Source of the DNA: Eledone cirrhosa | Taxonomy: Eukaryota | Direction of reading: 5' to 3' | Assembly (NCBI GenBank): GCA_964016885.1 | Contig: OZ024742.1 | Span: 11,160,001-11,224,000 of the forward strand | DNA: 64,000 nucleotides | Shown: positions 3,911 through 41,773 of the stretch, in pieces | Layout of the letters: every line of letters starts with the position of its first letter | Numbering within the stretch: position 1 is the first letter of the stretch | Program-made: the position numbers and the translations under genes | Notes under the pieces: model-generated | The model's database searches: none | What the model was told of the DNA's origin: nothing | What the model saw: only the letters and a program-made list of their open reading frames with translations

Positions 3911-4480
3911 TGGCTATTTGCATATCACAAACAGTATTATAGAAAAATTGCTGCATTGTATTTCTTCTTCTATTTTGTGAAATCTCTTTACATATTTAGT
4001 TGATATCTACATGTCAATGACTGCGTTTTTATCCTCCAGGGAACACCATAATTAGCTGCAGTTAAGTACTAAAGTCGATCTAGTATTTGATACAGTGCCA
4101 TTACATTCCGATAAACTCTCTACAGACTCTGTATACTGGATACAAAAGTCTAGTAAATTCCTGCTACTTAGTGCACTGTTTAATATATAATAAAATAAGC
4201 TACGATAGCAAGAACTAATGATTATAAGTGTATTAACATAACTAGTGCGGCTCCGTTACTGCCTCGTTTGTTAGGATTTAAAAGTCTTTTAGTTCTTTAT
4301 TTCTGCCTGAGTTGCGAGACAGGTAGCTGGCTTCTGACACTATTTCTGACTCGTTGAGATACGAGAGAGGTAAAGAGCTCCTCACAAGTATTTCTAACAA
4401 ATATAGAACTTTTTTTGACTTATCAGGGAGGCAGAGAGCCATTAAAAATATTTTTAGGAGTTATATAGGAATAAGTATGA

Positions 4481-4574
4481 CCCCGACGGCAGAACTGAAG
4501 CCGTTTCGACGGCTATTTCTGGACTAAATTAGAAATTTTAGCATGGTGAATAAATAGCCGAACTTGTCAAGGGG
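4481..4574 (-). ncRNA. Type-I hammerhead ribozyme, U3-A8 variant (inverted copy)
   Basis: Reverse complement of 4661-4754. Confidence 0.65.
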
Positions 4575-4660
4575 GTACTTCCTTATATGGGAAGTTTGTA
4601 GTTGTCAAGAGGATTGACAAATCCTCTTGACAACTACAATCTTTCCATATAAGGAAGTAC

Positions 4661-4754
4661 CCCCTTGACAAGTTCGGCTATTTATTCACCATGCTAAAAT
4701 TTCTAATTTAGTCCAGAAATAGCCGTCGAAACGGCTTCAGTTCTGCCGTCGGGG
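4661..4754 (+). ncRNA. Type-I hammerhead ribozyme, U3-A8 core variant
   Basis: cccc-UUGACAA-g..cggctattt/aaatagccg..c-GAAA-cggc/gccg-UC-gggg. Confidence 0.65.
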
Positions 4755-4973
4755 TCATAGTTTTTCCTATTTCACACTCTACTACCCTAAGTATTGAGTA
4801 CTCTGGTGCGTTATGTTCCATCTGGTTCCTTACCACAATTCCTTTGTTATATATATATATATATATATATATATATATATATATATATATATATATAAAG
4901 ATTTACATATACAAACTAAACAAAGTCAGATATATATGTGCTTTGTATAGTATATATATATATATATATATAT

Positions 4974-5175
4974 GGAAAAGAGTCAGGACCCCGACGGCTG
5001 AGCTCTGGCCGTTTCAACAGCTAGTTCTGAACTCGCATTCAGAACAAGCTGTCGAAACGGCCAGAGCTCAGCCGTCGGGGTCCTGACTCTTTTCCTATTA
5101 CCCACTCTACTACCCAAGGTATCGAGTACTGTGGTGCGTTATGGGCCACCTGGTTCCTTACCACACTTCCTTCGT
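4974..5175 (+). mobile_element. Snap-back mini-element (palindrome 4974-5095 plus tail) between (TA)n
   Basis: Hairpin containing GAAAC-ggc...gcc-GUC-gggg (3' half of a hammerhead) followed by the family tail. Confidence 0.75.
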
Positions 5176-5491
5176 TATATATATATATATATATATGTGT
5201 GTGTGTGTGTGTGTGTGTGTGTGTGTGTGTGTGTTTGAATTTGTTTATATATATATGAATATATATACCATAAGAGAGGAGGAGAGGAGAGAAGTTAGAA
5301 AGAAATACGGAGGCAGAATCGAAGAATCGACCGCAGTACTTGACTGATTCTTTAATTTTCAACTTCGAAATAAAAAAAAATAAAAATGACCTTCATAGGA
5401 TTTGAACTGAGAGCAGAGAAATCCGCAGATCATTCTGACATCGTAACATAAATTAAAATACTGAAACATGTGTGAGGCTGTGTGTTAATGT

Positions 5492-38149: not shown

Positions 38150-41100
38150 TAGTTGCATTTATCTTCCTTTATGTTCATACGAGTTATCACGAAGTCACAA
38201 CCAGTGACCTCAAGAGACAACAAGGTCCGTCATGTTCAAGAAAGAACATACATACACACACATGCATCTTTAGGTGTTTAGACTTGTGATGTACTTATAT
38301 TGACAGAATCTTCCTAAGTATATGGGCAGTTCCCATTAGTATTATCTTTTTGTATTTCTCCTATACGCGGGTTTCCTGGGATTTGCGATAAGTAATCATT
38401 AAACCCCTTAGGTATCATTCCTGTTTTAGTTCTCAATTTCCACATTTTTCCAATTTCTATCTCCACGTCCTTATACTTGCTCAATTATTCAAATGTTTTT
38501 TCTAGATACATTCTTGTCTATTGGAACGGACATATCAATTAGCAGGCATACCCTCTTTTTAAAGTCCTTCAGTATTATATCAGGTCTATTTGCATCTATT
38601 TTTCGATCTGTTTGGATGCTAAAGTTCCACAAGATTGAGATGTGATCTTTTTCAAGTATTCGGAGGTGGTTGATGCTCCCACCAATTCTTTTGATGGGAC
38701 AGGTAAGAAATACTTACACATTATCCAATGTATGTATTGTGCAGCTCTGTCATGCCTGTTTATGTATTCGGTTGGAGCTATAGGACTGCACATTGAAATT
38801 ATATGATCAATGGTCTCTGGTTGTTTTTTTTACATACACGGCATAATGGGCTGCATCCATTTTTATTATGTTGGCTTGGGAATTTTTTGTTGGCAGACAC
38901 TGATCTTGTGCTGATATAATCAGTCCTTCAGTATCCGATTTCAGTCCAGAGGATGCCAACCACTGATGGGTTAAAGTTTTGTCAACATCAGGATTGTTAG
39001 CGCTTTCTGGGTATTTTCCATACAGAGGCTTTTCTTGCTATTTCTTATCCATTTTCTGTAGCAGTTCTTTCTTTGCAGTTACTTTTACCGGCTTTGCTTT
39101 TTCTGTGTTTTTCATTTCAGCAGTAAATGGAACTTTTGAAATTTGTAGTCCATTACTGTATCTTTGTGCATCTTTTGTAATGGAGTATGATCTTTTGATG
39201 CTTTCGTGTTTCAAAACGAGTTTGATCATCCAATCATGTGATTCCCTTAGATATGTAGATAATCAAATTGTTGCAGTTTTCAACGCAATGTCTAACTGGA
39301 TTAACCCACGTCCTCCTTTCCTAGAGAGATATATTCTATCTGTATCTGCTTTTGGGTGATGCATTCTGTGCATGGTTAAGAATTTTCTTATTTTTGTATC
39401 GAGCCTACGGATCTCTGTGCTTGACCAGTTGATGACATTGTAACTGTAGGTTACTACTGGTATGGCAAGCGTGTTTATGGCATCGATCCTATTCCTTGCA
39501 TTCAATTCCGTTCTTAAGATTGATCTTACTCTGCGGTAACATTCCTTCCTTATCCTTTCCCTCATTGTCGAGTGCTTGATTCCGTCTCCTTCACAAACAC
39601 ATAGATATTTGTAAGTTTCCTCTTGATCAAGTTCTCTTATCACATTCCCCCGATCAAGATTAATGTCTGAACTTTTCAGCAGCTGTTTTGGCGCATTTAT
39701 CTAGTCCAAATTCCATTTTAATGTTATCACTGAACTGCTCCACAGTGGATAATTGTTCATCATTTTTTGCAAATAGTTTCAGGTCATCCATGTAGAACAA
39801 GTAATTAATGGTTTTGTCATAGACTTTATATCCATGTTTTGTTTCATTGAGCATTTTACTTAATGGTATAAGCGCGATTCAGAATAAAAGCGGTGATAAA
39901 GAGTCACCCTGAAAAATTCCACAATTAATATTAACTTCTCCAGCTCCCAGTGATTTTTTTTCACTATTCAAAAGGAGTGTCGTTTTCCATGTCTTCATAC
40001 TGAATGACAGGAACCTCCTGACAGCGGGAGATATTTTGAAAATCTCTAAGCATTTTTCAATCCAACTGTGTGGCAAACTATCGAATGCTTTTTTATAATC
40101 TATCCAAGCAATGGATAGATTTTTGTGTCTATTATGACAATCTTCCAGTATCATTTTGTTAACCAAAAGCTGATCCTTAGAGCCATATGAGCCCCGTTTA
40201 CACCCTTTCTGCTCAATGGGAAATAGGTCATTAGTTATCAGATGGTCATATGTATATTCAGTTAGGACTGATGTTAAAATGTTATACATTGTGGTCAATC
40301 AAGTTATCGGTCTGTAATTTGTGGGATTGTTTGTCTCATCATTCTTCGGAAGCAGGAATGTAATGCCGTTAACTAGCCATGATGGTATCTTTTCTGGCTC
40401 CTTAACTATTTCATTGTAAAGTTGGGCTAACAGCTCATGAGACTCTGTGAAGGCATTTATCCAAAAATTTGATATTTTGTCTTTTCCTGGGTATTTCCAT
40501 TTGCTGGTTTTTCTAAGAGCCAAACGCAACTGTTCAACTGTTATATTTTCCCATATTTGTTCCTCTTTCATGGGGCATGTATATTATGAACTTTTTCTTC
40601 GGCCCAGATCTTTTCCCAGAATTCTTGCACTTCCTCCTTGGGTGGTATTGATTTAGCAGTTATTGTTGACTTGCCAATTTTTCTGTAGAAGTTTCTTTGT
40701 TTGTTTTTGAACATATTATTGTCCTTATAGAATCTAGATCGTTTTTCAAAGCGCCTTATACGAGCAGCTTTGGCCGACACTTTTTGCTTGATTATTTCTA
40801 TCAGCATGTCTATGTCACTTATTGATTTTATACTGTATTTCCTTTTCAATTTTCTAAGTTTAGTTTGTTTAACATGTTCACCTACTTTGTAGTTTGTTAA
40901 AATGTCTATGTCAGATCGGAGAAGGTTTGTTTGGTGATTGATGTTCTCTTGCCAAGTAGATTTCTTGTGGGAATTCCTTTGTTTTGTCATTTTCACTCCA
41001 CATAAGTGAGTGGTGACTTTAGCCGATGCATAATAGAGATGATTTAAATCAGTAATGTTTAGTTTGTTTGTGATGATAAATTTTTTGAGAATTATGTTAG

Positions 41101-41360
41101 TCTTGTGTATTATCTTTTTGTTCTGTTTGGAGTTCTGGATCTTAGGGAGAGTGTCTCGTTCCCCCATGTCAGATTCTTTCATTTTCATCCATTCGATCAT
41201 AATTTCATCCTTCAAGTTAGCAAGTTCATTCTCATTCATTTCTTTATCATTTACGATCTCATTGTTTTCATTTTGAATTTCATCATGGGCATGCACTCCC
41301 TCCATTTTTTCGATCCTTTCTTTAATTTGTTCTGTTGTCAGTGATTCCGCCCCAACCCTG
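38150..41360 (-). mobile_element. R4/Dong-clade non-LTR retrotransposon, decayed, inserted in (TAA)n
   Basis: RT motifs NYRPIT, EQKGC, WIDYKKAFDS, GIFQGDSLSP, YMDDLK, FGLDKC, HPKAD..GGRGL; CCHC CRVC...ETIDHIISMC; RHD; NRPD; terminal LMGTAHILR. (TAA)n on both sides matches the known Dong target. Confidence 0.9.
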
Positions 41361-41406
41361 TATTATTATTATTATTATTATTACTATATATATATATAAT
41401 TATATA

Positions 41407-41603
41407 AGAAAATGTTCAGGACCTCAACGGCAGAGCTCAAGGCGTTTCGACAGCTATTTCTACTCAGTCCAGAAATAACCGTCGAAACGGCTTGGGCTCT
41501 GCCGTCGGGGTCTAAGATTTTCCTATTACCCACTCTACTACCCAAACTATCGAGTACTCTGGTGCGTTATGGTCCACCTGGTTCCTTACCACACTTCCTT
41601 CGT
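41407..41603 (+). mobile_element. Snap-back mini-element (palindrome plus tail)
   Basis: Same family as 4974; GAAACggc...gccGTCgggg. Confidence 0.7.
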
Positions 41604-41673
41604 TATATATATATATATATATATAGATACATATATTATATGTATATATATATATATATATATATATATATAT

Positions 41674-41773
41674 AGGAGTCCTGTCTCTTTTCCGATTACG
41701 AACTCTACTACAATATGCATCGAGTACTCTGGTGCGTTATGGTCCACCTGGTATCTTACCACACCTTCTTTGT
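41674..41773 (+). mobile_element. Tail-only copy of the snap-back family
   Basis: actctactac...atcgagtactctggtgcgttatggtccacctgg between (TA)n. Confidence 0.65.

Follow-up and report, generated by a model that had tools for sequence, protein, structure and literature searches.

The window analysed here is a 64,000-nt stretch of the Eledone cirrhosa genome (assembly GCA_964016885.1, contig OZ024742.1, positions 11,160,001 to 11,224,000 of the forward strand). It holds seven mini-palindromes of one family, F1, which derive from a Penelope-like element (PLE). We consider it likely that these palindromes are head-to-head pairs of PLE stumps with arms stopping at one base, and that they arose as dead ends, when both strands of a (TA)n target were primed near the capped 5' end of the element's mRNA and the reverse transcriptase (RT) ran off that end.

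An earlier note on this DNA had placed seven copies with one common tail of about 80 bp at 4466, 4974, 10351, 10592, 10867, 41407 and 41674. We located all of them, and observed that the 80-bp tail is common to the seven copies, with 82-100% identity to that of the 4466 copy (Table 1). Positions are numbered from site A (0), the last T of CCTAT before the tail, which is window position 4770 in the 4466 copy; site B is the end of the tail, at +80. In the copies at 4974, 10351, 10592 and 41407 both arms end inside stem II of a hammerhead motif, where the earlier note had put their inversion, and each arm retains only half a hammerhead, GAAA-stem III-GUC-stem I(3'). Stem I(3') or the sequence beyond it holds the centre in the copies at 10867 and 41674, and in that at 4466 the centre is about 150 nt upstream of the tail.

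Table 1. F1 copies and sequence motifs in the window (B1, subfamily; wall, the common stop base of the arms at -60)
Feature	Position	Strand	Remarks
Copy 1, inverted tail-less arm (primed at site A)	4465..4615	-	reaches about -150; complete hammerhead, core read downward from 4570
Copy 1, tailed arm (primed at site B)	4620..4850	+	complete hammerhead; site A 4770; tail 4771-4850
Type-I hammerhead motif (F1)	4665..4770	+	descriptor match and folds
Putative core promoter nested in stem II (F1)	4679..4714	+	TATA-like TATTTAT 4679-4685; initiator-like TTAGTCC, wall A 4710 (-60)
Copy 2, subfamily B1	4974..5178	+	tail-less arm 4974-5033, one more base in agreement with a cap-derived G, spacer of 3 nt, tailed arm 5038-5098, tail 5099-5178; wall position set by analogy, no long B1 copy having been found
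Copy 3, B1	10349..10538	-	tail 10349-10428; both arms end near -55, overlapping at a 6-nt palindrome centred 10483|10484
Copy 4	10590..10822	-	tail 10590-10669; tailed arm begins exactly at wall A (10730); spacer of about 26 nt; tail-less arm 10757-10822
Copy 5	10866..10967	+	tail, few bases and inverted stub of 20 nt; centred outside stem II, in the stem I 3' strand
Copy 6	41404..41606	+	tail-less arm 41404-41465; tailed arm begins exactly at wall A (41466); site A 41526; tail 41527-41606
Copy 7	41671..41776	+	diverged tail, about 16 nt of stem I 3' strand, minimal inverted stub

The palindromes are not assembly artefacts, since the same joints (4515-4530 to 4705-4715) are present in contigs from three public DNA runs of one sample. 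They are also far beyond chance, as a 33-nt tail-junction pattern gave 10,088 exact matches genome-wide and its reversed control 0. Sampling 74 stretches of 10 kb at even spacing gave 22 copies, 17 of them with the tail match; at about one copy per 34 kb, this corresponds to roughly 90,000 copies in 3.0 Gb (Poisson range about 56,000-135,000).

Parent element and ribozyme motif

A PLE parent, as the earlier note had supposed, was sought and found at one locus (L091) and, with intact open reading frames (ORFs), at the loci L392-L411. At L091 the layout is pLTR-tail-5'UTR-ORF-3'UTR-pLTR with a period of 3096 (pLTR, pseudo-long terminal repeat; UTR, untranslated region), where the tail is the beginning of the stretch between pLTR and ORF. 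Copies matched by a long arm extend upstream into the 3'UTR and the RT/GIY-YIG ORF. A younger subfamily (L392-L411) has intact ORFs of 717 aa, and its pLTR pairs are 98.5-100% identical in 17 of 19 copies. At L392 (contig C1, 437.20-437.21 Mb) at least 4 intact F1 units of period 3531 bp form a tandem array, a candidate source of read-through RNA.

The 717-aa protein is encoded by a single ORF with the RT first, then a GIY-YIG endonuclease at the C-terminus (YRDD at 348, IY..YIG pair at 592). It also carries DKT at 117, LRWR at 36, CNCPDRSIC at 572 (CxCX5C), CNLC at 670 (CxxC) and CKH at 698 (CxH), whereas a CCHH-like match is absent from the ORF. Hydra-clade PLEs are recognised by DKT in place of DKG, an RWK-type motif, a CxCX5C linker, CxxC, CxH and the lack of CCHH (PMC8557442; this paper, PMC11167929, PMC4209133, PMC2377424, PMC3287187 and the bioRxiv preprint named below are cited throughout for the accessible part of their text). 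By these motifs we assign the parent to the Hydra-clade C-terminal endonuclease-containing (EN+) PLEs. Naiad and Nematis had been considered first, and were dropped as the endonuclease is C-terminal and the motifs are of the Hydra type. Pfam gave no match for the parent ORF; homologues of the protein, of about 700 aa and 38-54% identity, are mostly unnamed. The insertion structure of EN+ PLEs is also found at L091 and L392-L411: partial-tandem pLTRs, an adjacent inverted copy, a tail at one end and a (TA)n target.

The earlier note had seen a complete hammerhead in each arm of the 4466 copy, and type-I descriptor matches on both strands, with UUGACAA at +4665 and -4570, agree with this. In the tailed arm, the core UUGACAA (4665-4671; -105 to -99) is followed by a 56-nt stem II (4672-4727; -98 to -43, loop -71 to -64) and GAAA (4728-4731; -42 to -39), the predicted cut is at 4750|4751 (-20|-19) and the 3' strand of stem I runs to 4770. 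This core is the U3-A8 variant, which has been described for PLE hammerheads (PMC4209133); across subfamilies and in another family, F3, N7 varies (C, G, U) while U3 and A8 are constant. The constrained hammerhead fold has an energy of -33.8 kcal/mol versus -34.1 for the free fold. No hammerhead family was among the Rfam matches listed (150 of 169), and hence the call rests on descriptor and fold. With a conserved core and three helices, the F1 motif has the features of a type-I hammerhead, for which self-cleavage is predicted.

Arms do not start preferentially at the cut site: 3 of 196 tailed arms start there against a neighbour mean of 1.3, which is not significant (p=0.15). GAAA-stem III has been lost recurrently between two GCCGTC direct repeats of the F1 hammerhead (L033, L067, L088, L262, L291, L321), and several apparent arm ends at -25/-26 are deletions between these two repeats.

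The stop at -60 and the base before it

We determined the arm ends in the first 90 of the 10,088 tail-junction matches by position, which lie in the first 42 Mb of contig C1; 68 of them have an inverted partner. This sample is blind to arm ends and excludes subfamily C. A TA run lies beyond the tail in 83 of the 90 copies and beyond the partner in 49 of the 68. Of the arms that extend as far as -54, 67 tailed and 56 tail-less, 56 and 51 respectively stop at -54 to -63, where the stop rate is 0.14-0.16 per nt compared with 0.002-0.009 downstream. The clustering of inversion points in stem II, as claimed in the earlier note, is therefore sharp, about 20-fold over the stop rate just downstream. 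The commonest stop is an A at -60 (18 tailed and 17 tail-less arms), which we call the wall, followed by -59 (14 and 11); of the 90 tailed arms, 79 get no further than -63. We also pooled 196 tailed arms, a further 68, chosen for length, being left out; 38 of the 196 start at -60, 21 at -59 and 16 at -54, and 12 pass -72.

Arms primed 61 and 141 nt away thus halt at one same base, so that the wall is a template position. A fixed travel length as its cause is ruled out, since arms primed 80 nt apart share the stop base.

Next to the wall we observed an extra base. A G precedes the A in 14 of 22 unambiguous -60 ends (those with a spacer or no partner) but in only 5 of 41 other ends (Fisher p=4e-5), and in 28 of the 38 -60 ends of the pooled set. 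Among tail-less arms, 8 of 17 such ends at the wall have an extra G of their own. Where both arms are complete the centre is often CAG or CTG, each arm contributing one extra base beside a single A or T, and 'G' and 'CAG' stand between the arms at the wall joint in the read contigs. Genome-wide, exact 47-nt arms reaching the wall A (n=3083) have the templated T before it in 1711 cases, G in 736 and another base in 636. An untemplated G in L1 and SVA insertions has been attributed to the RT reaching the cap (PMC3287187).

In two further copies (L172, L183) 12-21 T stand directly before the wall A, which suggests untemplated A addition to run-off cDNA. An LTR-like strand transfer that keeps the cap base was discarded, upstream continuation being found in 0 of 30 G-preceded F1 arms (by eye) and 0 of 22 in the sister family F2. 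A splice-acceptor reading of the wall was likewise rejected, as the arms retain the AG and a fixed upstream exon was not seen.

Initiator and TATA consensus motifs are textbook core-promoter elements of RNA polymerase II (Pol II). In F1 an initiator motif has the wall A as its +1, and the 5' strand of stem II holds a TATA-like box 29-31 nt upstream of this A. In all three families studied (F1 and its sisters F2 and F4) the initiator YYANWYY stands at the wall, which is expected by chance at about 0.04 per site from composition; relative to the wall the TATA-like box is at -31/-29 in F1 and at -30 in F4. The wall hence combines an initiator at +1, a TATA-like box near -30 and an extra G on the run-off copies. 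It is likely, as judged from these motifs, a Pol II start inside the pLTR, which is where the Penelope promoter has been located (PMC2377424).

F2 shares 52-54% protein identity with F1. It has a variant hammerhead-like motif, in which the wall A belongs to the 5' strand of stem I and precedes stem II by 12 nt. F2 arms at the initiator A number 13,654 with the templated T before it and 1841 without; G stands in 54 of the first 100 non-T arms (hand count). Of 30 inspected arms 28 are true ends, 22 with G, although two look like one duplicated locus. Among reads on F2, two listed pieces start at the wall, which supports it weakly. The F2 motif has a non-canonical core, CAGAAGA, that is conserved in thousands of copies; its cleavage ability is putative. 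F4 (49% protein identity) has a canonical CUGAUGA core, and stem I begins at its wall, which a TATAAAT box precedes by 30 nt. Starts within -3 to +7 of its A were found for 12 of 30 tailed arms and 11 of 17 partners, while 8 run on; exact starts at the A are 4 of 28 anchored arms, all 4 with G. The F2 and F4 walls thus lie outside stem II at the initiator A, and we concluded that the wall tracks the initiator, not stem II.

F4 is itself present in the window as a Hydra-type PLE at 18600-27760, with a 555-aa open frame at 22478-20814 (minus), a head-to-head inversion with kilobase arms centred at 22838|22839, and canonical hammerheads near 18689 (minus) and 27693 (plus). Its tail junction has 2,189 exact matches genome-wide.

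The same two primings could have met a different obstacle. The wall might be an uncapped processed RNA end, made by small-RNA slicing or a hairpin nuclease, or a structural stall, and the G a product of terminal-transferase activity. The F1 wall does lie in a predicted helix and those of F2 and F4 at the base of stem I, and untemplated additions occur at junctions, as spacers and T runs. However, the structural context of the wall differs between the families, while in all three it falls on the initiator +1 A, 29-31 nt behind a TATA-like box in two of them, and G is enriched at the wall only. We therefore regard such an uncapped end or stall as unlikely.

Pairing of the arms

The two arms of a palindrome are of strictly different kinds. 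The partner arm carries the tail in 0 of the 68 two-armed copies, and in a second set of 55 arms, 42 of them with a partner, 41 of these pairs consist of one tailed and one tail-less arm. This strict pairing fits the two-strand, two-site initiation observed in vitro with an anole PLE (PMC11167929). The same junction was found with the tail on either arm. At the junctions, 18 are blunt, 17 have an overlap of 1-7 nt and 33 a spacer of 1-17 nt, a mixture as expected for end-joining of two cDNAs. The centres differ between copies, as had been claimed: we found 62 distinct 18-nt centres among the 68. Each 'centre' is thus two independent arm ends, joined bluntly, by a short overlap or via a spacer.

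These data bear on the mechanism favoured in the earlier note, in which nascent cDNA snaps back and self-primes on stem II; to give a tail on one arm only, we take it together with an endonuclease that would resolve the hairpin at site A. Such a snap-back would account for one tailed and one tail-less arm and for the subfamily signature that the two arms share, and the hotspot does fall within the stem II coordinates. Published proposals ascribe PLE junction palindromes to self-priming (PMC3846280), and the tail to resolution by an endonuclease (PMC8557442). However, a fold-back strand cannot outreach its template, and only the tailed arm can be the template. We observed that the tail-less arm reaches further in 29 of the 68 pairs, the tailed arm in 27 and neither in 12; by at least 4 nt, it is 21 tail-less against 17 tailed. 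Loop II is almost never kept: an arm past it is involved in 3 of 68 centres, and none gives the join that fold-back on stem II predicts, the closest (L238) overshooting by 2 nt. The tail-less ends at the wall with a G of their own, the CAG and CTG spacers between two complete arms, and the walls outside stem II in F2 and F4 also speak against it; post-insertion deletions could blur the asymmetry of the arms but not create an extra G. Snap-back is already largely refuted, and we hold it to be very improbable. Of that earlier interpretation, the PLE parent, the half hammerheads and the clustering of ends in stem II stand, whereas self-priming on stem II does not.

That the short palindrome is a miniature inverted-repeat transposable element (MITE)- or short interspersed element (SINE)-like non-autonomous unit, re-amplifying from few masters, would suit about 90,000 short copies of uniform outline, the few recurrent centres (4, 3 and 2 of 68) and the high-depth joints in read contigs, but is very improbable given the individual centres, the many subfamily variants, the same junction with the tail on either arm, the unpaired 80-nt tail at one end, the retroelement parent, DNA-transposon-type terminal repeats and target duplication not being seen (a duplication is unreadable in TA runs) and the absence from the stumps of what follows the tail, a sequence without which the anole PLE has no suitable template (PMC11167929). 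The stumps do not seem to have been re-amplified, and the label 'MITE-like' of the earlier note describes their shape and not, since the centres are individual, their propagation. An identity as non-LTR retrozymes was ruled out too, as the stumps are head-to-head, not tandem, and mostly lack a complete ribozyme.

A unit that looks like a non-LTR retrozyme does occur nearby. F3, of 595 bp, has a UUGAUAA (U3-A8) hammerhead with a long stem II, and lies at about 17960-18500 of the window and at 2380-2975 of L117, where it forms a tandem dimer. PLE stumps of different families crowd into the same TA runs, often nested or adjacent, at many loci. In the window, three F1 copies lie within 620 bp (10349-10967), and at 37917-38072 two F2 ends stand tail-to-tail around a TA run, a microsatellite that was hit by two insertions. 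Simple-repeat arrays, long and strongly skewed (GC skew near 0.9), occupy about 11000-14000 and 43300-64000; they comprise CAC-rich sequence and GTG-type units of 5-15 nt over about 20 kb.

A putative run-off mechanism and its meaning

The run-off reading takes directly from the DNA the parent, the outer ends A and B 80 nt apart with one arm each, the wall at -60, the extra G, the TATA- and initiator-like motifs and the TA targets. It joins these to biochemistry: in vitro, the protein of another PLE was seen to nick both strands and extend them, and copying began at two internal sites that delimit the tail (PMC11167929). Pol II would start in the pLTR and give a capped mRNA with two priming sites, 61 and 141 nt from the cap. 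Both strands of the (TA)n target would be primed, at sites A and B, and the RT would run off the capped 5' end, giving 61-nt and 141-nt cDNAs with the cap copied as an extra base. The two cDNA 3' ends would then be trimmed by a few bases and end-joined to a head-to-head stump which, without sequence downstream of the tail, would be dead; the 62 distinct centres among 68 copies agree with this. For long and full-length copies, RNA that reads through tandem units would be required. As the F1 promoter would lie inside an enlarged stem II, RNA made from this promoter would have the hammerhead's substrate half at its start, and would be unable to cleave its own cap away. The half hammerheads would then be a by-product of an RNA that starts mid-hammerhead.

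A wider form of this proposal is more tentative, and we judge it possible rather than probable. PLEs may routinely make dead ends of the strong-stop kind, one ribonucleoprotein priming both strands at the tail-bounding sites of a capped mRNA and running off, and this would explain the inverted pLTR plus tail seen throughout the class without self-priming, and would allow PLE promoters to be located from genomic stumps. The F1 promoter would have moved into stem II, so that the capped mRNA escapes cleavage while the read-through template RNA is cut.

Several observations weigh against run-off from a capped end. The putative start is read from DNA. Many ends lie 1-6 nt short of the wall, among them the 21 at -59 and 16 at -54 of the 196, and the 90 copies all come from the first 42 Mb of one contig, without subfamily C. 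The F2 wall is weak, stopping 12% of the 15,495 arms that get to it; of the two F2 variants one lacks a TATA-like box, and a Drosophila-type downstream promoter element (DPE) was not seen by eye at +28-32. The partner arm could account for about half of the G's in F1 (14 of 30 by eye), the wall A is often preceded by C as well, partly from a subfamily variant, and reverse transcriptases are able to add untemplated bases wherever a template ends. Arms are 94.8% alike within copies and 92.5% between (n=41), so slight an excess that the use of one RNA molecule by both arms is putative. Finally, of 19 full-length young copies only one begins at the wall (-59), while 16 extend upstream and 2 start downstream or lack the pLTR; capped RNA is hence not the main template of full-length copies.

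In L1 twin priming, the second target strand also serves as primer, which produces an inversion. There the priming takes place at the 3' poly(A) tail and the two segments have no overlap, whereas here both primings are close to the 5' end and the same 61 nt are copied twice. The extra G where the RT meets a capped 5' end is, in turn, shared with full-length L1 and SVA (PMC3287187).

Hydra-clade EN+ PLEs resemble F1 in the single RT and GIY-YIG ORF, the pLTR hammerhead, the (TA)n targets and the adjacent inverted 5'-truncated copy with a tail on one end (PMC8557442). They differ in the tail (80 nt here, 30-40 there), the unit (3.1-3.5 kb here, 'generally <3 kb' there), the U3-A8 core with its 56-nt stem II, and the predominance here of 60/140-nt stumps ending at one base; the accessible text of that paper reports no such one-base wall. 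With Anolis carolinensis Poseidon in vitro, F1 shares two internal starts bounding the tail, both strands nicked and extended, and an AT-rich target; there the product length is set by the template 5' end, and ribozyme cleavage is dispensable (PMC11167929). The Poseidon work, in its accessible part, maps no natural 5' end and gives no account of head-to-head palindromes, while the genomic record here adds one arm per site and a common run-off point with an extra G. Drosophila virilis Penelope likewise has its promoter and start in the pLTR, with tandem units providing upstream sequence (PMC2377424). However, its promoter is TATA-less with a DPE and an intron (PMC2377424), and its start is upstream of the ribozyme with the intron end at helix I (PMC4209133), whereas F1 has TATA-like and initiator motifs and a putative start inside stem II. 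For PLE hammerheads, type-I motifs in pLTRs, the U3-A8 core variant and opposite-strand pairs 100-700 bp apart have been described (PMC4209133; bioRxiv 10.64898/2026.07.22.740005), as here.

The inverted pLTR plus tail, pLTR hammerheads, opposite-strand hammerhead pairs and two-site initiation are therefore already in print. In the open-access literature we found no report of PLE stumps piling at a capped start or of a promoter inside a ribozyme, subscription papers and some supplementary figures lying outside this scope. The supplement text of PMC11167929 had no match on such a wall, and its figures S1-S2 may bear on novelty.

As the architecture itself is known, the finding sharpens a mechanism rather than revealing a new class. 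How inverted pLTRs plus tail are formed in PLEs, and from which RNA the elements are copied, was stated as open (PMC8557442), self-priming on an antisense template has been proposed (PMC3846280), and the later insertion steps were left unvalidated in the accessible part of PMC11167929. Tens of thousands of natural junctions now favour a sense, capped template primed twice. According to the model the cap should lie at one base, the cDNAs should be of 61 nt and 141 nt with one extra base, and each start site should give one arm. The stumps offer a sequence-only mapping of PLE promoters and a testable reason for nesting a promoter in a ribozyme. If the run-off reading is true, the genome likely records the transcript start of the element and its copying into both DNA strands.

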